Assembly (NCBI GenBank): GCA_030688135.1
Contig: JAUYIW010000029.1
Coordinates: 1 to 38,603 of the forward strand
Origin: Candidatus Uhrbacteria bacterium
Lineage (GTDB): Bacteria > Patescibacteriota > Patescibacteriia > UBA9934
Direction of reading: 5' to 3'
DNA length: 38,603 bases
Position numbers and translations under genes: made by a program
Shown here: positions 2,707-22,846 of the stretch, piece by piece
How positions within the stretch are numbered: the stretch's first letter is position 1
How the letters are laid out: each line of letters begins with the position of its first letter
The notes under the pieces: model-generated
What the model was told of the DNA's origin: nothing
Database searches by the model: none
The model's input: the letters and a program-made list of their open reading frames with translations, nothing else

Positions 2707-3603
2707 ATGAAAATTCTTGGAATCGGACTAATGGGAGTACCTTTTTTTAATTTAGACGTAAAGAAAGAGGCAGAATCGCGTGGACACAGCATGGATTTTT
2801 GCCTTGCTAGTTCCTTAAATTTTGATATTAGCAATGAAAGCATCGATATAAGAGCAGGTGGTTTTAATTTGAAAGATTTTGATCTTATACACGTTGGATC
2901 ATTAATTCGAAATCGATGGCCACTTATTGCAACATTTGGATATCTTAGTCGTAATACCGGTTGTGCGATTGTTGATGATAGATTGATAAGTACAAATCTT
3001 GATCAGTATTCTGGACTCGCGAAGTACATTCTTGAACATGAGAATGGAATAAGGTTTCCTCGCTCGATTGTTTTCAAACAGGTTGAAGAAATTGAAGATA
3101 AGCTGTGTGAGTTTAAGTTTCCAGTTATTATAAAGACGAACTGCAGTAAGCAGGGAGCTGGTGTTGGTTTAGCACATAACATCAAAGACATTAAGAAGTT
3201 CGTTAAGCAAAAGCTAAAGATTAGTCAAAACATTGGATTTATTTTAAGAGAGCGAATACCAAATAATGGAGATTATCGCGTTAATGTAATTGACGGCAAG
3301 GCTGTTGTTTGTTTAAAAAGAACTCCAAAGAAAGGTGAATTTAGATCAAACATAAGCCTTGGTGGCAAACTTACAAAAACTAATGCGAAAGATGTAAAAG
3401 AGGTTTGTGCGGTTGGTGAAAAGATTGCACGTCTTTCAAACTATGATGTCGCTGGAGTCGACGTTATGGTTCATGCGGATACTGGCGTAGCATATGTGCT
3501 CGAGGTAAATAGGGCTCCTGGAAGTCTAGAGGACGATGTTTTGGCTTCGGGAGTGGATATGGCAAAACTTATTGTTGATTTGTACGAAAAGCGAGTCGCG
3601 TAA
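2707..3603 (+). CDS. ATP-grasp enzyme, RimK-like
   Basis: GDYRVNVIDGKAV...FRSNISLGG...VAGVDVMV...VLEVNRAPG is typical of the RimK/ATP-grasp C-terminal half. Confidence 0.65.
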   Translation: MKILGIGLMGVPFFNLDVKKEAESRGHSMDFCLASSLNFDISNESIDIRAGGFNLKDFDLIHVGSLIRNRWPLIATFGYLSRNTGCAIVDDRLISTNLDQYSGLAKYILEHENGIRFPRSIVFKQVEEIEDKLCEFKFPVIIKTNCSKQGAGVGLAHNIKDIKKFVKQKLKISQNIGFILRERIPNNGDYRVNVIDGKAVVCLKRTPKKGEFRSNISLGGKLTKTNAKDVKEVCAVGEKIARLSNYDVAGVDVMVHADTGVAYVLEVNRAPGSLEDDVLASGVDMAKLIVDLYEKRVA

Positions 3604-3645: not shown

Positions 3646-3969
3646 TTAGCTCTTACTTTTGTTTACTTTATGAATTCCACGAAAGCCAAGGGAAATCAAA
3701 ATAAAAATTACTACCTTTAAGAGATAGTGTTCATTTAAATCAACAAAATTTAAAGTCATCGGAGTCATGTTGCCGGTTAAGATATGCGCCAATATTCCAA
3801 TTGGAAGTGCCCAAATCACCCAACTCACTTTAGGCACTTTAATGTTAGCCTTGAGCAAGACTTTTGAAAGTAACGGGGAAATTATCCACATTCCAACAAG
3901 CGCTATGCTAATGTCAAAAACAGCGTAATCGAGAACTCTGAATTGTCTTAGATATTCTAAAGTATTCAT
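3646..3969 (-). CDS. Small integral membrane protein; no family recognised
   Basis: 107-aa ORF with three hydrophobic helices. Confidence 0.5.
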   Translation of the reverse strand: MNTLEYLRQFRVLDYAVFDISIALVGMWIISPLLSKVLLKANIKVPKVSWVIWALPIGILAHILTGNMTPMTLNFVDLNEHYLLKVVIFILISLGFRGIHKVNKSKS

Positions 3970-4118
3970 AAATATACTATAAATTTACTATATTATATCA
4001 CATTTTAGAGCGTTGAGTTCCTTTATGCTTAGGTCTGTCCATGGCATATCTATTCATTGGATATTTGGCATAAATGCTGAAATTAACTACAGATTAGTCG
4101 TTGCCGACGACTTTACGC

Positions 4119-4810: not shown

Positions 4811-4865
4811 ATTTTAAAAATTGATTTAACGAATTTCTAAGTATATTATACATCACTATAAAATA

Positions 4866-4900
4866 AATTAAAACAAAAAACAGCCAGTAAAGGCTGTTTT
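4866..4900 (-). terminator. Intrinsic terminator of the helicase gene
   Basis: Hairpin CAGCC-AGTAAA-GGCTG flanked by A/T runs. A T-run follows on the minus strand. Confidence 0.65.
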
Positions 4901-6556: not shown

Positions 6557-7666
6557 ATGATAAAGGAAAAAATTCAACAATCCATACGCTTCCTTCGTAT
6601 TCAGGAAATGTATGACAAATACGAACGTCTTTTACTTCCTGCAATGCTTGTAGTTGGTCTTATTGTTGATTTTATTACATTTAGAACAATCAAAGTTAGC
6701 ACGGCTTTTACGATTTTATGCGTGTATTTAGTTATTGCCGGTAGCACGATTGCCTTTATTAATATTTTTGACAGCAGAATAAGGCGTGGTAGAAATAGAT
6801 TAAGGTACCTACGACTTGCTTCTCCTCTTATTGTGCAATTTACATTTGGAGCTTTGCTTAGTGCGTCATTAATTTTTTATTGGTTTAGTGGAACGGTGTC
6901 GGTTAGTTGGCCACTTATTTTTATTATCGCATTTCTAATAGTTTCAAATGACGTATTCAAAGACAGATACCTTTCGCCAAAGGTGCAAATTGGCGTTTAT
7001 TACTTTGCATTGTTTTCACTATCGTCATTAATATTCCCGTTTATATTTAACTCAATTAGCGCTTGGGTTTTTGTATTAGGGGGTGTTGTAAGCGCACTGT
7101 TAATGTATGCTTACATAACTTTGCTCGCAAAGTCAGTAGAAGACATTCGAAATGTTAAAATAAAGTTATTTTGGGTTATTGGTTTAATTTTTATTTTTTT
7201 AAATGGCTTGTATTTTTTAAATGTGATTCCGCCAATCCCTCTTTCCCTTCGAGAAGCCGGCGTTTATCACAATGTCAAGCAATCTAGCGGTTTGTATATG
7301 TTGAGCGGAGAAAGGGAATCGTTACTAGATAAGATTATTCCAGGGCAAACGATTCATATTGAAAAGGGCCAGAGCGTTTACGCGTATTCTGCAATATTTG
7401 CCCCAGCTGAATTAAACACGGTGATTGTTCATAACTGGGAGTATTTTGACTCAGACACACGCAGATGGATTAGCAAAGATAAACTAACCTTTAGAATTTA
7501 CGGTGGTCGTGACGAAGGATTCCGTGGATATTCTGCTAAGTCTCAAGTTAGCGCAGGAAAGTGGAGAGTTAGTGTTGAAACAGAACGGGGTCAGGTATTG
7601 GGCCGATTACGTTTTGGAGTTGAAATTGTGGATGTTGCGCCAGATCTTATAAAATCAACAAGATAG
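6557..7666 (+). CDS. Polytopic membrane protein with a C-terminal soluble domain (DUF2914-like)
   Basis: About 6 TM helices, then ...GKWRVSVETERGQVLGRLRFGV. The family assignment is from memory of the DUF2914 pattern. Confidence 0.5.
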   Translation: MIKEKIQQSIRFLRIQEMYDKYERLLLPAMLVVGLIVDFITFRTIKVSTAFTILCVYLVIAGSTIAFINIFDSRIRRGRNRLRYLRLASPLIVQFTFGALLSASLIFYWFSGTVSVSWPLIFIIAFLIVSNDVFKDRYLSPKVQIGVYYFALFSLSSLIFPFIFNSISAWVFVLGGVVSALLMYAYITLLAKSVEDIRNVKIKLFWVIGLIFIFLNGLYFLNVIPPIPLSLREAGVYHNVKQSSGLYMLSGERESLLDKIIPGQTIHIEKGQSVYAYSAIFAPAELNTVIVHNWEYFDSDTRRWISKDKLTFRIYGGRDEGFRGYSAKSQVSAGKWRVSVETERGQVLGRLRFGVEIVDVAPDLIKSTR

Positions 7667-13880: not shown

Positions 13881-14576
13881 ATGATTAAAATAGGATTTCC
13901 AATTTGGGGAAATGGAAAAAAACATAGCAATATTTCAGATGAGAAAAGCGAAAAAGCTCCTGCGTGGGGATATGATCCAACCATTCATGAGTCAAAGGTA
14001 AGTTCTGACGACTTGCCTAAAGTGGAGTCCCCTGTGGATCGTACTGAAGTAAAACCCATAACTCCTGGCGTTTATAATGTTGCCGATGTTATACCTACCG
14101 ATACCGGGTTAGCGGAAATTTTTATAAATGTAGAGGCTACTCCTGAATTGATGGATTTTTTTAAACGCTTCCCCGATAGAAGCATGAACATTAATGAAAC
14201 TTTAGAAAATTTAGTAAAGAGAGTTGAGAGCGGGGAACTTGAACTTCAGAGTATCAAAACCGGTCTAGAAGGGCTTTTAGATGAGTATAGGCAATTTCAA
14301 GAAGTAGCCAACACCGCTCTTGGACGTCATTATATTCCTTCGGTAGTTGTTGCTATGAAGCCGGAGATGGATATGAGTGGTGAAGGTATACGATCAACAA
14401 CATCGCTTCTTGCACGTAATTTTAGTAATGATTTAGAAGATGATCCTATCGGTAGTCAAATCTATGCAAGATTCGAAACTCTGCGTTGGCTTTTGCAGAA
14501 TAATAATGCGGCGTTAGTTGAGCTTGAGCAAAGAAGGCGTGCAGAAGATGGTTTTCCGGGCAATATCCCGGTTTAG
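13881..14576 (+). CDS. Hypothetical protein, 231 aa
   Basis: Clean ORF with no recognisable motif. A terminator follows it. Confidence 0.5.
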   Translation: MIKIGFPIWGNGKKHSNISDEKSEKAPAWGYDPTIHESKVSSDDLPKVESPVDRTEVKPITPGVYNVADVIPTDTGLAEIFINVEATPELMDFFKRFPDRSMNINETLENLVKRVESGELELQSIKTGLEGLLDEYRQFQEVANTALGRHYIPSVVVAMKPEMDMSGEGIRSTTSLLARNFSNDLEDDPIGSQIYARFETLRWLLQNNNAALVELEQRRRAEDGFPGNIPV

Positions 14577-14587
14577 TAGATTATTAT

Positions 14588-14616
14588 CAAGAAAACCATA
14601 AAAATGTGGTTTTTTT
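14588..14616 (+). terminator. Intrinsic terminator
   Basis: Stem AAAACCAT / TGTGGTTTT followed by a T-run. Confidence 0.6.
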
Positions 14617-14635
14617 GATTTGCAGTATATTGTTT

Positions 14636-14666
14636 CTCAAGGCTAAACCTTGCCAAGGTTTAGCCT
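14636..14666. promoter_or_regulatory. Perfect palindrome CAAGGCTAAACCTT-GCC-AAGGTTTAGCCTTG (14-bp arms), candidate operator
   Basis: Read directly. It ends 20 nt before the -35 box of the 14752 gene promoter. Confidence 0.6.
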
Positions 14667-14685
14667 TGGATTAGTATATATATTA

Positions 14686-14714
14686 ACTTGACATTTTAAG
14701 CATTTTCTGTTAAC
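14686..14714 (+). promoter_or_regulatory. Promoter TTGACA-17-(TGt)TAACTT for the 693-codon gene
   Basis: TTGACA at 14686-14691, TGT at 14706-14708 and TAACTT at 14709-14714. An AAGGA ribosome-binding site lies 8 nt before the ATG at 14752. Confidence 0.5.
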
Positions 14715-14751
14715 TTTGCAGGTTCTTTCACAATTTTAAAAGGAAAAATCA

Positions 14752-16833
14752 ATGGAATTAAAGCAGATTCTAGGAATCAGGACATCACAAGTCCTGAGCG
14801 CCAGACAGGTGCGGGAAGATCCAATTCAGGCTCTTATCCGCATTTGGGATACTTCGCCACATTATGAAATCGATCTTGGTGAACATGGCTTGATCGATTT
14901 TGTACTATGCGATCCAAAATATCTTCAGGATTTTATTCCCGGAGAGTTCTACGGAGTATATCTTGGTTACATGAACTTTGTGTCAACCAAGACTCCTGAG
15001 CGATGGATTCCATACGTGGCACTTCACGAGTGGGCTGAATACAATATCGGGCGAGAATTCAAGTCTCACGAAGATCCATTGGGGCTCGCAAAGCAATGGC
15101 AAGCATTGTTTGGAGAGATCCGTATGGCAGGTCTTGCTATGAGTGAAGATGAGTTCAATATGTACATTGTCTGGCGTGAAAGCGTTGAGACTACTAGGTA
15201 CTTTGAACTTGATCACGAGGCTCAGGAATGTTTGAAACGTGCAGGGTCTGAGCTAGCCAAAGGCAGTGTAAAGAGGCTTGCCTGGACTAGGCGCGACCTT
15301 CGGGCGTATAGCCTGCGCAGATTTATGAACTACGACCAAGCTTACATGATGGGTATGACGCATACAGAATCCCTGATCAGTGCAATTCTTGATTGCTCTC
15401 ACCCGGTAGGCGACATCTACGCTGTGCTTAGCTATTTTGCGTATGTGGATGTTGATGCTAAAGTATCTGTTCCACGCTCACTTGCGCATATCGTGTACTT
15501 TCTTGCTGCCGAGATTGAAAGACCGGTGCTAAAGATTGTGCAAGATGAAGGCAGTATGTATTCAGTGTCCCACGCAAGTGGCAGAACTCGACAAACAGTT
15601 GATGCTGTTATGCGCAGGCTTGGTGTAGCACAGGTTAGTAGAATGAGATCACTTCCAAATCAGATTCCCAAAAAGGAGATACAGATGTCATCTGCAATTC
15701 TGATAACGCATCGCGTGTACGTAAGTCCTCGGCAGGCTGAGATCTTGCTGGAGATGCGAAAGGGGCGTTCGCCTGCTGATAGGTTTTCCGATCTAGGCAG
15801 TGCGCTGTGCGCGACTCTGAGAGAGCTTGGTGTTGTGAACAAGGCCGAGAAGGGCAGTAAGCCTTTCTACGTGAGCGACGAACGAGCTCAGCGCATGCAG
15901 TTTATTCGTCAGACCAACGAGGACGATATTGCGTATCCTGTGCAAACTGAAAATGAGGCGACTACGCCCACTCAGTGGATTGACGACCTCGAACGTATTG
16001 CGACATCCGCCGAATCGAAAGGCGTTGATGAATCGTTGATTCTGTGTGGAGATGAAGATTCCGACACGCTGGTTGTTTATCTGGACGCTGAAGAGGCACG
16101 GTTGCTTCTAGATATCTTTTCCGGCACACGTTCAGCAAAACTATCCAAGGTACTCAGTCATTGGGGTTGGAAGCTGAAGGAGTTGGATGTCTTAAGAACC
16201 GAAGGCAGGCGTACTGTGATAGTGGAAGGAAATGCCTCCAAGGTCTTGTGGAGAAAGAGAGTTGAACGCGAAAGATTTGCGCGCGCAAAAGATGTAGCAC
16301 GCCTTCAGCCAAACCAATGGTTGCTTGATCTTCGTAGTATTGCCTACCCTAGCGTGGGCGAACACGATGCCACTGCAGAAACGCAAGCGTTGCCTGAGGT
16401 TCCGGCTGTGGCCGACGTGCCTCTGCAGGAAGAGCAGTGTCCAATCGAGGCGCCTGAACTTCCGGGAAGCTCTGGAACTTCGGCAGGCTCAAGAATTCCG
16501 GCAGTAGCTCGATATCTGTTTAGTAACTGCTCGAGGCCTGGCATATTATACAATCCTTCAGAAAACGAAATCGCTGAAGTGCTGACGCCAGAAATGGTAG
16601 ATGCGCTGACGCCAGTGGAGATCAAGATAGCAGAAAGACAGGCAGAGCATGAACGGATCGACCAAGAGATTTCACGGCTCGTCGCTATGAAGCACCAGCT
16701 AGATTTTGAAGGTCGAGCTGCGCTCGAAAAACGTCACCGTTTTATGGATGCGATTCGAGCAATTGTGACCTCAAGGCGCGCTATGCTTGCAGCAATGGAA
16801 GAAATGCGCGAAAGCTTCAAGGAAGAGTTGTAA
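14752..16833 (+). CDS. Large orphan protein (693 aa), compositionally atypical; possible repeated HTH-like modules and a C-terminal coiled coil
   Basis: Uninterrupted ORF with its own promoter, ribosome-binding site and terminator. No Walker A, HExxH or nuclease motif was seen. Confidence 0.7.
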   Translation: MELKQILGIRTSQVLSARQVREDPIQALIRIWDTSPHYEIDLGEHGLIDFVLCDPKYLQDFIPGEFYGVYLGYMNFVSTKTPERWIPYVALHEWAEYNIGREFKSHEDPLGLAKQWQALFGEIRMAGLAMSEDEFNMYIVWRESVETTRYFELDHEAQECLKRAGSELAKGSVKRLAWTRRDLRAYSLRRFMNYDQAYMMGMTHTESLISAILDCSHPVGDIYAVLSYFAYVDVDAKVSVPRSLAHIVYFLAAEIERPVLKIVQDEGSMYSVSHASGRTRQTVDAVMRRLGVAQVSRMRSLPNQIPKKEIQMSSAILITHRVYVSPRQAEILLEMRKGRSPADRFSDLGSALCATLRELGVVNKAEKGSKPFYVSDERAQRMQFIRQTNEDDIAYPVQTENEATTPTQWIDDLERIATSAESKGVDESLILCGDEDSDTLVVYLDAEEARLLLDIFSGTRSAKLSKVLSHWGWKLKELDVLRTEGRRTVIVEGNASKVLWRKRVERERFARAKDVARLQPNQWLLDLRSIAYPSVGEHDATAETQALPEVPAVADVPLQEEQCPIEAPELPGSSGTSAGSRIPAVARYLFSNCSRPGILYNPSENEIAEVLTPEMVDALTPVEIKIAERQAEHERIDQEISRLVAMKHQLDFEGRAALEKRHRFMDAIRAIVTSRRAMLAAMEEMRESFKEEL

Positions 16834-16953: not shown

Positions 16954-17244
16954 ATGCAGAGATTTAAAAAAATTAAACATATAGAATTAAAGGTGTATGG
17001 AAATGTGCAGGGTGTTTTTTATAGAGAAGCAGTGCAGAGAATCGCTAATTCACTCAATGTGAATGGATATGTAAAGAATAACGTTAACGGAACGGTTAGC
17101 ATTTCTGCTGAGGCTGAGTCTGGTACGTTAGATGATTTTGTTGAAAAGTGTCATGAGGGTTCCGAGAGCTCTTATATAAAAAAAGTGCGTGTAGTGGAGG
17201 GCCCGGTTGAAGGATATCAAAATTTTGTTGTTAAATGGGGCTAG
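16954..17244 (+). CDS. acyP: Acylphosphatase (complete)
   Basis: VYGNVQGVFYR and NGYVKNNVNGTVSI are acylphosphatase signatures. Confidence 0.85.
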   Translation: MQRFKKIKHIELKVYGNVQGVFYREAVQRIANSLNVNGYVKNNVNGTVSISAEAESGTLDDFVEKCHEGSESSYIKKVRVVEGPVEGYQNFVVKWG

Positions 17245-17268
17245 GTTATAATATTTTGGAAAACTTCA

Positions 17269-17292
17269 CGTACGGGGTCACGTACGGGGTCA
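17269..17292. repeat. Tandem 12-mer CGTACGGGGTCA x2
   Basis: The units at 17269-17280 and 17281-17292 are identical. Each contains GGGGTCA. Confidence 0.9.
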
Positions 17293-17309
17293 GACATCTA
17301 GCGTTGACA
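17288..17309. repeat. GGTCAGACATCTAGCGTTGACA, matching 137-157 at 21 of 22 positions
   Basis: Direct comparison with GGTCAACATCTAGCGTTGACA at the left edge. GAGAATTCGC follows both copies (17348-17357 and 177-186). Confidence 0.85.
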
Positions 17310-17391
17310 TATTATGGAATTCTTTATCGGATTGATAGAAATTGTTGGAGAATTCGCAAAAACAATAAAAAATGGGACATTAAAAAAATAC

Positions 17392-17421
17392 TTGACAAAG
17401 CGGTGAAGCGTGCTGTATAAT
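17392..17421 (+). promoter_or_regulatory. Near-consensus promoter TTGACA-18-TATAAT
   Basis: TTGACA at 17392-17397 and TATAAT at 17416-17421. Confidence 0.55.
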
Positions 17422-17448
17422 CCAAACATTCGTAATCAAGCTCAGTAT

Positions 17449-17937
17449 ATGAACATGTTTGAAGGTCGACGTCGACTGGTACATCCAGAATCAAAACAAT
17501 CGAAAGTAGAATTGCCGCAAGATCAAGATACAGATGTCATGCGAATGCGTGGCAAGGTAGATTATGGTATTGATATTGAAGATCTTCCTCATTCAGGGTT
17601 GAGTCCTGAGGATTATGTTATTGAGAGAGAGACTCCTGTGATTCCTGATTATGACGAGGAAGAAGAAAGGAAAAAAAGTGCTGCGGAGTTTGATCCAGCG
17701 GACACCTCTTCAGATGAACCAACTGAATCTGAATCAGGAGAAGGTTTACCAGAACATGAGAACCCTGTTGGTGGAGTTGTTGGATCAAGACGTATTGCGC
17801 GCTATGTCGAGACGCCAAAGTTTCCAGATCGTAAATGGAAGCGGGGAGACAAGCATCGCGGAGCCGAGAAGCCGCATAAACAAGGTCGCCGTCCTACAGG
17901 ACAGGAAGGAAGTGATCAAGAAGATGTTGCGGCTTAG
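17449..17937 (+). CDS. Highly charged, probably disordered orphan protein (162 aa from ATG 17449)
   Basis: The listed ORF starts at GTG 17410, which overlaps the -10 box, so I chose the ATG at 17449. The sequence is acidic in the middle (DYDEEEE, DTSSDEPTESESGEG) and has a basic C-terminus. Confidence 0.45.
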   Translation: MNMFEGRRRLVHPESKQSKVELPQDQDTDVMRMRGKVDYGIDIEDLPHSGLSPEDYVIERETPVIPDYDEEEERKKSAAEFDPADTSSDEPTESESGEGLPEHENPVGGVVGSRRIARYVETPKFPDRKWKRGDKHRGAEKPHKQGRRPTGQEGSDQEDVAA

Positions 17938-18007
17938 TTGTTTGTGGATTTTTCTCATCACAATCCCTAGAAGGGAAAGATTCGTTGGGGCTCTGCGGTT
18001 ATAATCG

Positions 18008-18032
18008 GGGGTCAGGTCGTTACTTGTAGCAT
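18008..18032. repeat. Left arm of a perfect 25-bp inverted repeat (GGGGTCAGGTCGTTACTTGTAGCAT)
   Basis: Its exact reverse complement is at 18898-18922. Confidence 0.95.
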
Positions 18033-18036
18033 TTTC

Positions 18037-18045
18037 TGGTATAAT
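18037..18045 (+). promoter_or_regulatory. Extended -10 box TGGTATAAT
   Basis: It lies 4 nt after the left repeat arm and places the transcription start at about 18052, so the ATG at 18053 would be leaderless. Confidence 0.45.
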
Positions 18046-18052
18046 GAGGGGT

Positions 18053-18898
18053 ATGGTCAGGCCACTACGCATCAAATATCCTGGCGCTCTTTACCACGTC
18101 ACTAGTCGTGGAAACGCCTACCAAGATATCTTTCTCAACGACAAAGATCGTCGTGCGTTTTTGAATAACCTGAAATATTGCATAAAACTTCATAACCTTA
18201 TATGCCACGCATATTGTCTTATGAACAATCATTATCATTTACTCATAGAGACACCGGATGGAAACTTGTCACAGGCAATGCGTGACATAAACGGCAACTA
18301 CACGCAAGGATTCAACGCACGCCATAAATGCGTAGGACATGTGATGCAAGGTCGGTACAAAGCATTTCTCGTCGAGAAAGAACCTTATTTACTCGAAGTC
18401 GTACGTTATATTGTCAACAATCCTGTTGAGGCAAAAATGGTTGAACATCCCAAAAACTGGAAATGGAGTAGCTTTTGTGCGACAGCCGGATTTGTGAAGT
18501 CGCCAGCTTGGCTTATGACGGATTTTACGCTCAGCTTATTTTCTAAGAAAAGAAATGAGGCTCAGAAACAGTATCAAGATTTTGTGAAAGAAGGTATGGA
18601 ACGCGGTTCACCGTATGATGACGTGAAAGAAGGCGTTATTCTAGGAAGTCCTCAGTTCATCGGGTGGGTTTGGGAAAATTTTAAGGAGTTAGAGCTCGTA
18701 ACAGAGGTGAAAACGTCCAACCGGATGATCGGCAGGCCTAGTTTAGAGGACTTATTCTATGACATTACAAAGAAAAAACAACGGGACAATGCCATGAGAG
18801 TAGCTAGAGTACGGGCTGGCTACTCAGTAACTGAAATAGCTAATCATCTAGGACTTCACAGAACGACGGTTAGTAGAATCTTGAATAGTTCGCTATAA
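18053..18898 (+). CDS. Y1 (HUH) transposase of the IS200/RAYT type with a C-terminal DnaA-C-like HTH
   Basis: N-terminus MVRPLRIKYPGALYHVTSRGN. HUH motif NNHYHLLIE. Catalytic-Tyr region VRYIVNNPVEAKMV. C-terminal HTH MRVARVRAGYSVTEIANHLGLHRTTVSRIL. An alternative start is at 18044. Confidence 0.85.
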   Translation: MVRPLRIKYPGALYHVTSRGNAYQDIFLNDKDRRAFLNNLKYCIKLHNLICHAYCLMNNHYHLLIETPDGNLSQAMRDINGNYTQGFNARHKCVGHVMQGRYKAFLVEKEPYLLEVVRYIVNNPVEAKMVEHPKNWKWSSFCATAGFVKSPAWLMTDFTLSLFSKKRNEAQKQYQDFVKEGMERGSPYDDVKEGVILGSPQFIGWVWENFKELELVTEVKTSNRMIGRPSLEDLFYDITKKKQRDNAMRVARVRAGYSVTEIANHLGLHRTTVSRILNSSL

Positions 18899-18922
18899 TG
18901 CTACAAGTAACGACCTGACCCC
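18898..18922. repeat. Right arm of the 25-bp inverted repeat (ATGCTACAAGTAACGACCTGACCCC)
   Basis: It overlaps the last base of the transposase stop codon. Confidence 0.95.
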
Positions 18923-18955
18923 TTTACTAGTGAATCATCAAAATCGACGATCGAA

Positions 18956-18970
18956 GACCTGACCCCTTTA
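18956..18970. repeat. Second copy of GACCTGACCCCTTTA (first copy at 18912-18926)
   Basis: Identical 15-mers 44 nt apart. Confidence 0.9.
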
Positions 18971-18977
18971 TTACCTC

Positions 18978-19202
18978 TACAGGGAGGCTATACAAAAAAT
19001 TGCCAACTCAATGAATGTTAATGGATTTGTAAAAAATAATATCAATGGCACGGTTAGCATTTCAGCTGAAGGCGAATCAAACATTTTGGATAGCTTTGTC
19101 GAAAAATGCCGAAGCGGTTCAGAGAGTTCTTATATAAAAAAATTAAGGATTTCAGAAGGTCCTGTTGAGGGCTATCAAAACTTTACTGTGAAATGGGGGT
19201 AA
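18978..19202 (+). pseudogene. 5'-truncated second acylphosphatase copy (last 74 codons only)
   Basis: YREAIQKIANSMNVNGFVKNN...GYQNFTVKWG is colinear with 17020-17244, and I count 59 of 74 identical residues. There is no equivalent of codons 1-22. Confidence 0.75.
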
Positions 19203-19225: not shown

Positions 19226-19258
19226 AAAAAACAACCTCTATTTCGAGGCTGTTTTTGA
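19226..19258. terminator. Bidirectional intrinsic terminator
   Basis: Hairpin AAAAACAACCTC-TATTTC-GAGGCTGTTTTT. The mismatch becomes a G.U pair on the minus strand. T-runs lie on both sides. Confidence 0.65.
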
Positions 19259-19363
19259 TAGTCTTACTGCTTTTTGTTTTCTTCGGCGTCGTGCTGCGTC
19301 AACTTCTTTTTTTGCGGCAACCGCACGTGACTTTTTTCTACCTAATTTGTGTCGTGTTGGCAT
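19238..19363 (-). CDS. 41-aa very basic peptide (MPTRHKLGRKKSRAVAAKKEVDAARRRRKQKAVRLSKTASK), possibly leaderless
   Basis: Hand translation; the ORF is below the 60-aa cut-off of the ORF track. It has its own promoter and terminator. Confidence 0.4.
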   Translation of the reverse strand: MPTRHKLGRKKSRAVAAKKEVDAARRRRKQKAVRLSKTASK

Positions 19364-19530: not shown

Positions 19531-21042
19531 ATGGAAATACAAATAACAAAAGGAGATATTTTGGAAAGCAAAGCAGAATTGCTTGTTATTGGGTCATATC
19601 AAGGTGAATCAATGGATAATAATTTTCTTACACGTCTTGACGACCTTTTGAACGGCAAACTGCACAAATATGCTAAGACTCAAGAATTTGAAGGGAAGGC
19701 TGGGCAAACGCTTCTTTTTCCTGCTGCTGACGCAATGAAGGCTGAATATGCACTTGTTGTTGGCTTGGGTGAACTGGGTGATTTAAGCGAAGAAAACATT
19801 GAAGGGGTTCGCGAAGCGGCAGGAGCAGTTTTGCAAATAGCAAAAAAGCTTGGACTTTCAACTATTTCAATGGAACTTTTTGGTGAAGATGATGAAAAAT
19901 TTGATGCATTTTTACATGGTCAGGCCTTGGGAGAGGCACTGCTTTTGGCAGACTATGAATTTACAACGTACAAAAAGACAAAAAGCAAAGTGAAAATCAA
20001 TAATATTGAAATAGTTGCAGAAAATGGCCAGGACGCTAGAAAGGCACAACGCGGAGTAGAGAAAGCTATCAAAGTTGTTAAGGGTGTAATTTTGGCACGA
20101 GATCTTGTAAATACACCTGCGCAAGATATGTGTCCGGAAAAGCTCTCTAGCGTGGCTAGGGAAATTGCAAAGGAGTCAAAAGGCAAGGTTAAAGTTAGGA
20201 TTTTAGACAAAGAACAATGCCTTAAGAAAACCATGGGCGCATTCTTGGCAGTCGCGCAAGGAAGTGATTCTCAGCCTCAGTTCATTCATCTGTCATATAA
20301 GCCTGTAAAAGCAAAGAAAAGTATTGCGCTCGTTGGAAAAGGTATAACATTTGATTCTGGCGGACTATCTTTAAAACCGGCAAGGAGCATGGAAACAATG
20401 AAATGTGATATGGCCGGAGCCGCTTCGGTGCTTGGTGTATTTTCCATTTTAACAAGCCTTGAGCCAAACATAGAAGTACACGGGATAATTGCAGCTACAG
20501 AAAATCTACTTTCATCAAAGGCTATGAAACCTGGCGATATTGTAGAAGCATCGAACAAAAAAACAATTGAGATTTTAAATACAGACGCAGAAGGAAGGCT
20601 GGCTCTTGCTGACTCTTTAGTTTATGCCTCAAAGTTAAAACCCGATGCAATTATTGATCTTGCCACGCTAACAGGTGCGTGTGTAGTTGCGCTTGGGGAA
20701 GAAATCTCTGCGATAATGTCGAATAATGCTGAACTTGCAAATAAGCTAATTCGATATAGCTCTGAGTCAGGCGAGAAGATGTGGGAAATGCCATTAGAGA
20801 AGAAGTATAGAAAACTTATTGAGTCAGACGTTGCAGACCTTAGAAACATATCGACAACAAATTATGGCGGAACGCTAACGGCAACACTCTTTCTTCAGGA
20901 GTTTGTGCCAAAGGAAATTCCATGGGCGCATCTTGATATAGCAGGACCTGCTTTTGCAGAACGACCAATGGCATCATACATTCAAAAGGGCGGCACAGGA
21001 TTTGGAGTAAGAACACTTATAAGATTTATTGAGGGTAAGTAA
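19531..21042 (+). CDS. pepA: Leucyl aminopeptidase (M17)
   Basis: NTDAEGRLALAD signature, plus VGKGITFDSGG and DMAGAA. Confidence 0.92.
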   Translation: MEIQITKGDILESKAELLVIGSYQGESMDNNFLTRLDDLLNGKLHKYAKTQEFEGKAGQTLLFPAADAMKAEYALVVGLGELGDLSEENIEGVREAAGAVLQIAKKLGLSTISMELFGEDDEKFDAFLHGQALGEALLLADYEFTTYKKTKSKVKINNIEIVAENGQDARKAQRGVEKAIKVVKGVILARDLVNTPAQDMCPEKLSSVAREIAKESKGKVKVRILDKEQCLKKTMGAFLAVAQGSDSQPQFIHLSYKPVKAKKSIALVGKGITFDSGGLSLKPARSMETMKCDMAGAASVLGVFSILTSLEPNIEVHGIIAATENLLSSKAMKPGDIVEASNKKTIEILNTDAEGRLALADSLVYASKLKPDAIIDLATLTGACVVALGEEISAIMSNNAELANKLIRYSSESGEKMWEMPLEKKYRKLIESDVADLRNISTTNYGGTLTATLFLQEFVPKEIPWAHLDIAGPAFAERPMASYIQKGGTGFGVRTLIRFIEGK

Positions 21043-21479: not shown

Positions 21480-21850
21480 ATGAACAAGAGAATACTCACA
21501 CAGGAGCAGATCGAGGAGCTATCGAGAAATGTGTGTGTCTGAAGGTGTTCGGAGAAGTCCGTTAAGTACAGTTCGGACTTAAGGTGCTGGCAGTCACAAG
21601 GTATGAGAAGAAAGGAATCCCTCCTTTGCAGATATTTACATAAGTAGGATTCAACTTGACTGCGATCGGCAAAAATGTTCCAGACGATCGGATGCACTTT
21701 TGGAGAAAAGTTGTAAAGGCGAAAGGTCTTGATGGATTGGCAACAGAATCACGTGGCAAAGCTGGTGGTGGAGGTAGGCCTAAGACAAAGAATTTAATAG
21801 ACGCAGAAAAGATAGAACGTCCGGAAACAACGGTTGCCTACCTAAAAGTA
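21480..21850 (+). pseudogene. Degraded IS3-family OrfA-like (HTH) transposase gene
   Basis: Conceptual repair gives MNKRILTQEQIEELSRNVCV*RCSEKSVKYSSD(F)KVLAVTRYEKKGIPPLQIFT*VGFNLTAIGKNVPDDRMHFWRKVVKAKGLDGLATESRGKAGGGGRPKTKNL. Lesions are TGA at 21540-21542, a 1-nt deletion near 21580 and TAA at 21641-21643. Confidence 0.6.
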
Positions 21851-22651
21851 GCGACATACTTTAACGCAATGGCAAATTGGGCGAATATCATTGAAAACGC
21901 ATATGGGCTAACAAAAGGCGGAAGTCTCCAAGGTAGAGTTAAGAGCGGTATCCAGCAAGCGGGTGAGGCCGGTGTTGCAGCGGCTACGGGTGGAATTGGT
22001 GGGGTATTGTTAAAGGCAGGTCAAACAGTCGCGGGTCAAACGAATAAGAACAAACAAAAAGCGCTGGATCAGTTGGTAGATTTTTTGCGTAAATCAGACG
22101 ACCTCCCAAAAGCCCCAGCCGGTAAAGCCGGCGGAGTAAATGTTCCTGAAGCGGATATAGTCGGTGATGTAACTACCTCAATCTCCAAAGCTAAAGAAGC
22201 GGTAACTTCTAAAACTACTCTACAAAACTTTGACTCAAAAATCATTGACGATTACTTTGGGATGGAAAAAGGATGGCTAATTGATAATGTAGATGATTTT
22301 GTTTTACTTGGTGATGAACTGAAGATAAGGAATAGGATTATTAAACATATCACCGAACAGCGCAAGTTAAAAGACGGAATGTCTAGCGGTCAAATCAAGG
22401 AAATGTTTGACAAGATTCCATCTGCTATTAAAGAAAAAGATTTTGAGATTCCGAATCCTAGTAAAACGGGTATAGATGGATCGATCCTAGTAGGTAAGTT
22501 TTACCCAGAAGAAAATCGAGGTCTTATTATCATTAAAGATTCCAACGGCTCTCTTCTTGATGTGTTTGAAGAAGATGTTAGTGAAATCCTTAATGCTTTT
22601 TTTAAGAATAAAAGCGGATACAAAAAACTGAAAAACAAATCAAAAAACTGA
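21656..22651 (+). CDS. Chimeric ORF: the first ~65 codons are the tail of the OrfA-like pseudogene and the rest is an orphan sequence
   Basis: TTG start inside the pseudogene frame. The downstream part (Gly-rich GVAAATGGIGGVLLKAG, then a Lys/Asp-rich domain) has no recognisable family. Confidence 0.4.
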   Translation: MTAIGKNVPDDRMHFWRKVVKAKGLDGLATESRGKAGGGGRPKTKNLIDAEKIERPETTVAYLKVATYFNAMANWANIIENAYGLTKGGSLQGRVKSGIQQAGEAGVAAATGGIGGVLLKAGQTVAGQTNKNKQKALDQLVDFLRKSDDLPKAPAGKAGGVNVPEADIVGDVTTSISKAKEAVTSKTTLQNFDSKIIDDYFGMEKGWLIDNVDDFVLLGDELKIRNRIIKHITEQRKLKDGMSSGQIKEMFDKIPSAIKEKDFEIPNPSKTGIDGSILVGKFYPEENRGLIIIKDSNGSLLDVFEEDVSEILNAFFKNKSGYKKLKNKSKN

Positions 22652-22846
22652 TCTGTTCTTATAGAGGAACGGTAGTCCTCATCTGTCATCTTCCGGAGAA
22701 GACGCCCGCAGTAAGCACCGTATTGGTTAAACCAATTTTCTGCATTTTATAAGAATGTATCAGTCTAATGAGAGTATACCACAAATACCACGAATTGTAA
22801 ATACCTATCTTCTCCCAAAATTTATGATGATGCGGTAGAGGTTCCT

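Follow-up and report, generated by a model that had tools for sequence, protein, structure and literature searches.

Two alleles of an acylphosphatase gene on either side of a TIRtron-type transposon in a patescibacterial genome

On the 38.6-kb Candidatus Uhrbacteria contig JAUYIW010000029.1 (analysed whole and called the window here), the acylphosphatase gene acyP is found twice, as an intact copy and, beyond a transposon, as a copy that has lost its 5' end. Gene order and sequence comparison indicate that the truncated copy is the displaced 3' part of the locus's original acyP, that the 3' part of the intact copy is a long-diverged allele shaped by purifying selection, and that the transposon is a TIRtron, an element with a terminal inverted repeat (TIR)-associated tyrosine transposase (TIRYT), a known class here found in a new host group. 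Our best explanation, held tentatively and falling somewhat short of being probable, is that the TIRtron entered the resident acyP and that recombination across TIRtron copies then placed a divergent intact allele on its left, together with ~760 bp of foreign DNA. We regard the arrangement as a clear if unremarkable result of mobile-element-associated recombination and as no new kind of system.

Two diverged copies of acyP

The two copies lie on the same strand:
16954..17244, + strand: intact acylphosphatase gene acyP, 96 codons (PF00708; open reading frame (ORF) list; alignment with homologues)
18974..19202, + strand: remnant of the resident acyP from codon 22 onward, 74-75 open codons plus stop; homology from 18975/18978

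The intact gene matches PF00708 with 72.9 bits (E 2.7e-20) and the remnant, over 18978-19202, with 52.7 bits (E 5.5e-14; Pfam search, cut-off 22.5). The phosphate-binding loop V-x-G-x-V-Q-G-V-x-[FY]-R reads VYGNVQGVFYR in the intact protein; the remnant, which lacks codons 1-21 and the catalytic loop, retains only its final ...YR. Segments 17020-17244 and 18978-19202, each 225 nt long, are colinear and ungapped, and share 59 of 74 residues and 159 of 225 bases. By tblastn the homology extends one codon further, starting at 18975, and a flank-against-flank tblastx comparison gave an E of 1e-28. Outside the segments, no similarity was found in the 60 nt to the left of either one or in the 60 nt past either stop codon, and no acyP 5' fragment (codons 1-21) lies beside the left TIR of the transposon (TIR-L) or anywhere in the window. 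The junction sequences, TTTTT/TATAGAGAAGC on the left and CCTC/TACAGGGAGGC on the right (the stroke marks the junction), have only scattered bases in common, without an identical core.

Among 1.84e9 representative proteins, the nearest relative of the intact acyP is the truncated copy (79% identity), and the next stands at 57%. A search for acyP homologues yielded nothing beyond the two copies of the window, exact-protein look-ups with acyP, the remnant and the TIRYT matched the window's own population alone, and a metagenome scan with conserved acyP peptides gave no match. P0244, considered as a second truncated acyP, was rejected because it is full length with a mis-called start.

The 66 nucleotide differences between the copies are distributed 11/10/45 over codon positions 1/2/3, with Nei-Gojobori values of 0.88 for pS (saturated) and 0.15 for dN, and the 15 amino acid differences are conservative (V/I, K/R, L/M, F/Y, A/G). 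Alignment with eight outgroup acylphosphatases shows neither copy to be degenerate: the remnant keeps a conserved Gly that is altered in the intact copy, and its 74 codons contain no stop and no frameshift. A relative-rate test for decay of the remnant found no asymmetry, at low power. Since synonymous sites are saturated and the substitutions are conservative, both copies diverged almost entirely as working genes, and the truncation is recent relative to that divergence. On this evidence the 3' part of the left copy is a long-diverged allele shaped by purifying selection. Tandem duplication in situ followed by decay is excluded by the saturated synonymous sites, the conservative changes and the lack of similarity past the stop codons. 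These results bear out the original prediction, which had described a complete left copy of 96 codons and, on the right, the in-frame last 74 codons of a second one (two colinear segments of 225 nt with 59 of 74 residues identical, figures that the alignment reproduces exactly), and had judged the pair to be no fresh duplication.

It is scarcely credible that selection maintains the truncated copy for a functional short product of 63 aa, read from the ATG at 19011. Its frame is open, its substitutions are conservative, and public records annotate it as a protein of 63 or 70 aa; however, it is missing two defining features of acylphosphatase activity, strand beta-1 and the phosphate-binding loop VxGxVQGVxFR, neither a ribosome-binding site nor a promoter is evident, and no homologous short form is known.

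The remnant lies in the ancestral acyP slot

Three features downstream of the remnant served to place it:
19227..19256, no strand: bidirectional terminator hairpin, native, common to the resident acyP and the convergent small gene
19238..19363, - strand: conserved gene for a small basic protein of 41 aa (MPTRHKLGRKK...), convergent with acyP; synteny anchor
19531..21042, + strand: pepA, leucyl aminopeptidase (PF00883, PF02789); synteny anchor and taxonomic marker

The nearest PepA, in a search covering a 185,579-species genome set and 5.8 billion proteins, is 68% identical, and the closest homologues belong to Uhrbacteria and Patescibacteria; placed by this protein, the window comes from a member of the Patescibacteria near Candidatus Uhrbacteria. 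pepA begins 329 nt downstream of the remnant. Among the loci fetched for comparison (L numbers), L006 (PepA 59% identical) and L104 (65%) have a single intact acyP followed by a terminator, the convergent small basic gene (41-42 aa) and pepA. The closest relative, L003, has a homologue of the orphan protein p693, the terminator, the small gene and pepA, and no acyP, and L103 has a single acyP farther upstream. Equivalent terminator hairpins stand at the matching place in L003, L006 and L104. The small basic gene is 83.6% identical over 122 nt to that of L003, has a tblastx match in L006, and has homologues (MPSRHNL...) in L103 and L104; the wider shared order is SpoU ... acyP, small gene, pepA, grx ... 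ahpC. Because the order acyP, terminator, small gene, pepA is conserved, the remnant occupies the ancestral acyP slot, and by this synteny it is the displaced 3' part of the locus's original acyP. The ancestral neighbours are divided between the copies, with the right ones beside the right copy and the left one beside the left copy. No empty site, congener or close relative of the locus was found in any database searched.

The 41-aa basic protein (MPTRHKLGRKKSRAVAAKKEV...) is itself conserved between acyP or p693 and pepA in L003, L006, L103 and L104, and could be assigned to no family.

Counting acyP copies bears on one of two histories that the original prediction had put forward. According to it, a transposase element inserted between two tandem paralogues and the second lost its 5' end. 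In the form weighed here, p693 and the small gene once enclosed two old acyP paralogues in tandem; a TIRtron entered the second, whose 5' end was then lost together with the intervening DNA, for instance through a deletion spanning two TIRtron copies. Neither copy has a closer known relative than the other (79% against 57% for the next), both retain ancestral neighbours, redundancy would make an insertion in one copy tolerable, and L086 (below) offers a comparable case, with an intact tRNA-Gln and a truncated tRNA 3' fragment across a TIRtron. The relatives lend it no support, however: L006, L103 and L104 carry one acyP each and L003 none, so that a tandem pair occurs in none of them. Purifying selection would also have had to maintain both acyP genes over a long time in a reduced genome, and two TIRtron insertions and a deletion would be needed as extra steps. 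We consider it unlikely.

The transposon is a TIRtron

The transposon consists of the following features:
18008..18033, + strand: TIR-L, left terminal inverted repeat, GGGGTCAGGTCGTTACTTGTAGCATT, 26 nt, 100% complementary to 18897-18922
18037-18045, + strand: conserved extended -10 element TGGTATAAT, just after TIR-L
18053..18898, + strand: TIRYT gene, Y1 HUH tyrosine transposase with C-terminal helix-turn-helix (HTH), 281 aa (284 aa from the ATG at 18044)
18897..18922, - strand: TIR-R, right terminal inverted repeat, perfect partner of TIR-L
18956..18973, - strand: partial copy of the TIR-R end, the second such end, GACCTGACCCCTTTATTA; probable outer limit of the multicopy unit

In translation, the HUH motif of the TIRYT reads HYH and the catalytic Y stands in RYIVNNP. 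The protein matches PF01797 (Y1_Tnp; E 6e-10), HTH_23, HTH_28 and other HTH families at residues 252-282, and the NCBIfam model NF047646 for REP-associated tyrosine transposases (RAYTs; 84.9 bits, cut-off 80). At least 7904 homologues were found at E<=1e-10, many of them on Logan contigs of ~0.9-1.0 kb. TIRtrons, with their TIRYT gene and GGGGWSAS tip motif, have been described before (Di Nocera et al. 2013, PMC3733652), and the TIRYTs belong to subclass 2.1 of the Y1 HuH proteins, which has C-terminal HTH domains (Quentin et al. 2018, PMC6006769). The TIR tip in the window, GGGGTCAG, fits the published motif (PMC3733652). Four copies of GGGGTCAG lie in a nested inverted arrangement in the interval between the acyP copies, and the whole window holds five against 0.25 expected by chance. 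The partial end at 18956-18973 forms a direct repeat (D3) with GACCTGACCCCTTTACTA at 18912-18929, the TIR-R tip and flank, with 17 of 18 positions matching.

The same 26-nt TIR flanks transposases of 69-75% identity in the unrelated samples L083, L084 and L097, and the 11-nt tip GGGGTCAGGTC is common to the more distant members L086 and L106. In none of the other TIRtron contexts examined, at least five, was acyP or a duplication of the flanks found. Because it has its own conserved TIRs and occurs elsewhere without acyP, the TIRtron is an independent unit of which acyP is no part. Flank duplication as a general property of the transposon was considered and was not seen in L083, L084 or L097. 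No TIRtron was found on viral contigs.

On these features the transposon is a TIRtron: it has a RAYT-homologous Y1 HUH transposase with a C-terminal HTH, flanking TIRs at short fixed distances and the GGGGWSAS tip, and TIR dimers and clusters occur in related genomes too. The window copy differs from those described in its patescibacterial host, in its extra partial TIR at 18956-18973, in the lack of dispersed TIR copies across the 38.6 kb, where extra TIR-type sequence is limited to that partial TIR and tip-like 12-mers, and in its place between an intact gene and a truncated homologue of the same gene. The original prediction's term 'RAYT-like' thus stands as far as the Y1_Tnp and NF047646 matches go, and gives way to TIRYT/TIRtron on account of the 26-nt TIRs, the GGGGWSAS tip and a repeat that is not of the REP type; the perfect inverted repeat 18008-18033/18897-18922 had been missed.

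Two better-known systems are related. With REPIN-RAYT systems (Bertels & Rainey 2011, PMC3116915; PMC3337134) the element shares the NCBIfam match, inverted flanking repeats, head-to-head doublets of 57-58 nt in relatives and a GTAG in the repeat. It differs from them in that its single repeat is not palindromic, no REPIN population is present in the window, and the family looks like insertion sequences (IS), with many collapsed contigs of ~0.9-1.0 kb and insertion sites that vary between genomes, unlike a single-copy, vertically inherited RAYT. Elements of the IS200/IS605 family have subterminal imperfect hairpins and no terminal inverted repeats. The window element resembles IS608 and ISDra2 of that family in its Y1 HUH chemistry and in lacking a target-site duplication at the ends examined, and differs in its long perfect TIRs and in ends without significant local hairpins (z about 0): they fold no better than shuffled sequences (z 0.05-0.9), and the TIR is not self-complementary.

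Smaller relatives of the element were seen in Joint Genome Institute (JGI) metagenomes, both as head-to-head TIR dimers of 57-58 nt (L094 11599-11655, L096 910-967, L098 ~120-175) and as miniature elements of 120-130 nt without a transposase (L092 2080-2209, L093 1704-1824). These are derivatives of the window's TIRtron family comparable to REPINs and to miniature inverted-repeat transposable elements.

L086 (also L088), whose transposase is 65% identical, offers another example of a TIRtron that separates an intact gene from a 3' fragment. There an intact tRNA-Gln(UUG) at 2346-2419, on the opposite strand, stands 65 nt to the left of TIR-L, while 39 nt to the right of TIR-R, at 3448-3478, is the truncated 3' end of a tRNA (T-arm and acceptor, a single mismatch over 26 positions).

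Repeat boundaries in an independent assembly

The Logan assembly of SRR13727534, built with k=31 and containing each 31-mer once per contig set (PMC12424806), covers the locus in two contigs, L001 (14244-18037) and L002 (18944-21904), both matching the window at 100% identity. The end of L001 at 18037 equals 18008+29, and the start of L002 at 18944 equals 18973-29; contig ends at k=31 thus put branch points at 18008 and 18973. The former is the first base of TIR-L and the latter the last base of the 18-nt partial TIR-R copy, from which we infer that a multicopy unit spans 18008-18973. After 18973, where the junction-side repeat terminates in ...CCCCTTTATTA, unique DNA would resume at CCTC/TAC..., 4 nt before acyP homology. 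No more than 4 nt therefore separate the remnant from a TIR-type repeat's outer end.

The same contig ends bear on whether the arrangement is an assembly chimera, two loci or co-occurring relatives joined via the repeated TIRtron. The link across 18038-18943 exists in the window's assembly only, and the k=31 assembly breaks on both sides of it. The two halves, however, complement each other (SpoU, p231 and p693 on the left; the small gene, pepA, grx and ahpC on the right) in the order of L003, L006 and L104, no second related PepA (>68%) was found in a collection that includes this sample, and the acyP copies, at 71% nucleotide identity, share no long k-mers. A chimera is highly improbable.

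DNA between the intact acyP and the transposon

About 760 bp of non-syntenic DNA separates the intact acyP from the left end of the TIRtron and contains:
17266..17309, + strand: cluster of small palindromic repeats, directly past the acyP stop codon
17311..17364, + strand: atpB fragment (ATP synthase F0 subunit a), ~18 codons, 54 nt, reading EFFIGLIEIVGEFAKT
17392..17421, + strand: sigma-70 consensus promoter (TTGACA, 18 nt, TATAAT; 12/12 matches), upstream of ORF162
17449..17937, + strand: ORF162, highly charged orphan protein, 162 aa, annotated at this length in a public record

In the repeat cluster, tandem 12-mers (TCACGTACGGGG x2) at 17266-17289 form the hairpin CGTACG-GGGTCA-CGTACG, two GGGGWSAS-type tips, GGGGTCAC and GGGGTCAG, stand in tandem, and a 22-nt hairpin motif, GGTCAGACATCTAGCGTTGACA, occupies 17288-17309. 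Tandem TIR tips like these flank the TIRtron in L106. The atpB fragment starts 18 nt past a GGGGTCAG tip, is 81% identical at the nucleotide level (blastn) to part of full-length atpB ORFs in L014 and L021, and has no continuing ORF; no intact atpB is present in the window. ORF162 matched nothing in Pfam, NCBIfam, PHROGs, the fetched loci or viral contigs. Its GC3 of 0.29 against a GC of 0.46 resembles that of real genes of this genome, and the protein is probably expressed. ORF162 and the Y1 transposase are the only ORFs in the interval 17245-18977, which holds no integrase. Compositional foreignness of the insert was uninformative at such a length, and tRNA and Rfam scans of the window gave no match. 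The interval's contents had been correctly listed beforehand (tandem 12-mers, a consensus promoter, the 162-aa orphan ORF, the Y1 transposase and nested inverted GGGGTCAG motifs), the atpB fragment excepted.

In L106, at 3940-3970 and 4865-4900, the tip is duplicated in tandem just outside the full TIRs (GGGGTCAtgaaGGGGTCAGG; GTAAAGGGGTAAAGGGGTCAGG), as at window 17266-17293, and many TIR ends are preceded by (A)GTAAA; such duplications and the (A)GTAAA may be part of the TIR or footprints of transposition.

A proposed replacement of the resident allele around the TIRtron

The two present flanks of the TIRtron do not belong together, as judged from sequence, because no acyP codons 1-21 lie beside TIR-L or elsewhere in the window. 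Under the explanation that we favour, a TIRtron insertion at codon 21/22 would have inactivated the resident acyP. Homologous recombination would then have swapped everything left of the transposon, pairing on the right through the portable transposon and on the left through conserved upstream DNA (p693 or the 5' end of acyP). The incoming acyP-spacer-ORF162-TIRtron segment, from a related lineage, would amount to a xenologous replacement, in which resident codons 1-21 were erased, acylphosphatase function was restored and the resident 3' part was left as a recent pseudogene. As the left flank would have been exchanged, no trace of codons 1-21 is expected beside TIR-L. This model explains the seamless intact gene, the lost codons, the junction at the transposon end, the outer synteny and the recent pseudogene, and would need no enzymology that is not already known. 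Other scars of illegitimate or transposon-associated joining are present in the interval, namely the atpB fragment, the tandem TIR tips and the partial TIR. The arrangement resembles other cases of IS-mediated recombination and xenologous displacement in its mismatched element flanks and in the replacement of a resident gene in situ by a divergent homologue, and differs from them in that the resident 3' remnant is still an open ORF, so that both the old allele and the new one are legible at the same locus.

Several points weigh against this replacement. Neither a donor lineage nor an empty site nor a second TIRtron copy of this genome was recovered, and the model requires TIRtron insertions near acyP in donor and recipient alike. 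That the two copies are mutually closest known relatives fits a close donor and old paralogues equally. Identical contig ends would result from a population polymorphism whose variants part after 18037 and rejoin at 18944; the other Logan contig ends (14244, 21904) have no obvious repeat, and the repeat boundaries are themselves drawn from contig ends. Finally, TIRYT transposition has to our knowledge never been characterised biochemically, and the insertion behaviour invoked here is assumed by analogy with IS200/IS605.

A single step might also have produced the arrangement, by homology-facilitated illegitimate recombination in which foreign acyP-spacer-ORF162-TIRtron DNA paired through homology on the left and was joined illegitimately to the resident acyP on the right, the transposon playing no role. 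No prior insertion in the recipient would be needed, and the atpB fragment shows that illegitimate joins occur in this DNA. Such a join nevertheless leaves unexplained why the right junction falls within 4 nt of the end of a TIR-type repeat and of the inferred boundary at 18973, and we give it a slim chance.

The other history in the original prediction treated 17020-18977 as one integrating element that carries its own replacement for the 3' part of acyP. In the form weighed here, ~17016/17020-18973 inserted at codon 21-23 and displaced the native 3' part, with the Y1 TIRYT as recombinase, for instance through aberrant left-end cleavage in a donor acyP that captured the 3' part. The anatomy matches that of icd, e14 and icdC, in which an intact gene runs into the insert, a displaced 3' pseudogene lies beyond it and the differences are mostly synonymous or conservative (PMC13626634). 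The boundary falls immediately after VQGVxYR, the most conserved motif, the remnant has kept its native position, the content of the insert is non-housekeeping, GGGGWSAS-type tips occur near both interval ends (17274-17293 and 18956-18966), and gene fragments are found beside TIR ends (atpB in the window, a tRNA in L086). Yet the interval holds neither a tyrosine nor a serine integrase, the two junctions share no identical core, and the left 'end' at 17020 is set solely by where the remnant starts. The TIRtron is bounded by its own conserved TIRs, with TIR-L 990 nt from the proposed left end, it occurs in five or more other contexts that show neither acyP nor a duplication of the flanks, and there is no known precedent for a Y1 element that restores a protein-gene target. 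What survives of this proposal is that the right copy is the displaced native 3' part, as synteny with L006, L104 and L003 indicates, and that the left 3' part is a diverged allele; a single integrating element is quite unlikely.

The comparison with e14 can be made more closely. In that system e14 or phage 21 is integrated in icd and the displaced 3' pseudogene is icdC (Hill et al. 1989, as described in PMC13626634). The window shares with it an intact gene and, beyond the inserted DNA, a differing colinear 3' fragment with mostly synonymous or conservative differences, that is, an intact target gene with the displaced native 3' fragment, an element having supplied either the 3' end of the intact gene or the whole of it. 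The prophage e14 measures 15 kb, encodes a site-specific integrase, has defined attachment (att) sites and on excision yields a chimeric icd, whereas the insert in the window measures less than 2 kb and has no integrase and no identical core; the copies are far more diverged (71% nucleotide identity), and the only recombinase is a Y1 transposase with separate ends.

A more general version of the single-element history would make the TIRYT transposon a gene-restoring one: a Y1 single-stranded DNA element that extends leftward by aberrant cleavage in a neighbouring conserved gene, inserts at the same conserved sequence in another genome and, by bringing along a replacement for the 3' part of its protein-gene target, restores that gene. 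Gene fragments such as atpB in the window and the tRNA 3' end in L086 would, within this reading, have been shuffled in the same way. We accord it only a small chance. If a Y1 element did carry a replacement gene end, target-restoring integration would extend from integrase-based elements to single-strand transposons.

Because a gene's former and present alleles are preserved next to each other, the locus, under the replacement that we favour, captures cleanly and in datable form how a gene was replaced in situ around a mobile element. The host belongs to the candidate phyla radiation (CPR), in which recombination and horizontal gene transfer are difficult to document. TIRtrons were described in 2013 and, as far as we know, have never been studied functionally. 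TIRtron-type Y1 elements form a very large family in Patescibacteria (the at least 7904 homologues, and the miniature TIR dimers) and can sit at rearrangement junctions.

Other features of the window

Between SpoU and acyP lie p231 and p693, orphan proteins of 231 and 693 aa (window 13881-16833; L003 5847-9568) without a match to any family. Of the relatives, only L003, the closest, shares them (33-41% identity), and L006 and L104 lack both. GC reaches 0.48-0.49 in the C-terminal two thirds of p693, against 0.41 for the window. The region looks like a lineage-specific insertion beside the acyP slot. L103 carries a different insertion, downstream of its acyP, with an AAA protein and a 726-aa protein.

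The fifth GGGGTCAG of the window, at 7587-7594, lies inside the ORF 6557-7666, has no TIR-like extension and is probably a chance occurrence. The 22-nt hairpin motif (GGTCA(G)ACATCTAGCGTTGACA, stem GTCAAC/GTTGAC) is found twice more in a 32-nt tandem repeat at 105-170, right where the contig begins; it may represent a second small repeat family, and the repeat may be the reason that the contig ends there. Downstream, at 21480-22700, glutaredoxin is followed by a short ORF (MNKRILTQEQIEELSRNVCV*), HTH-like by eye alone, and then by a 331-aa ORF without a family match; this stretch, which holds the end of L002 (21904), may be another degenerate mobile element.

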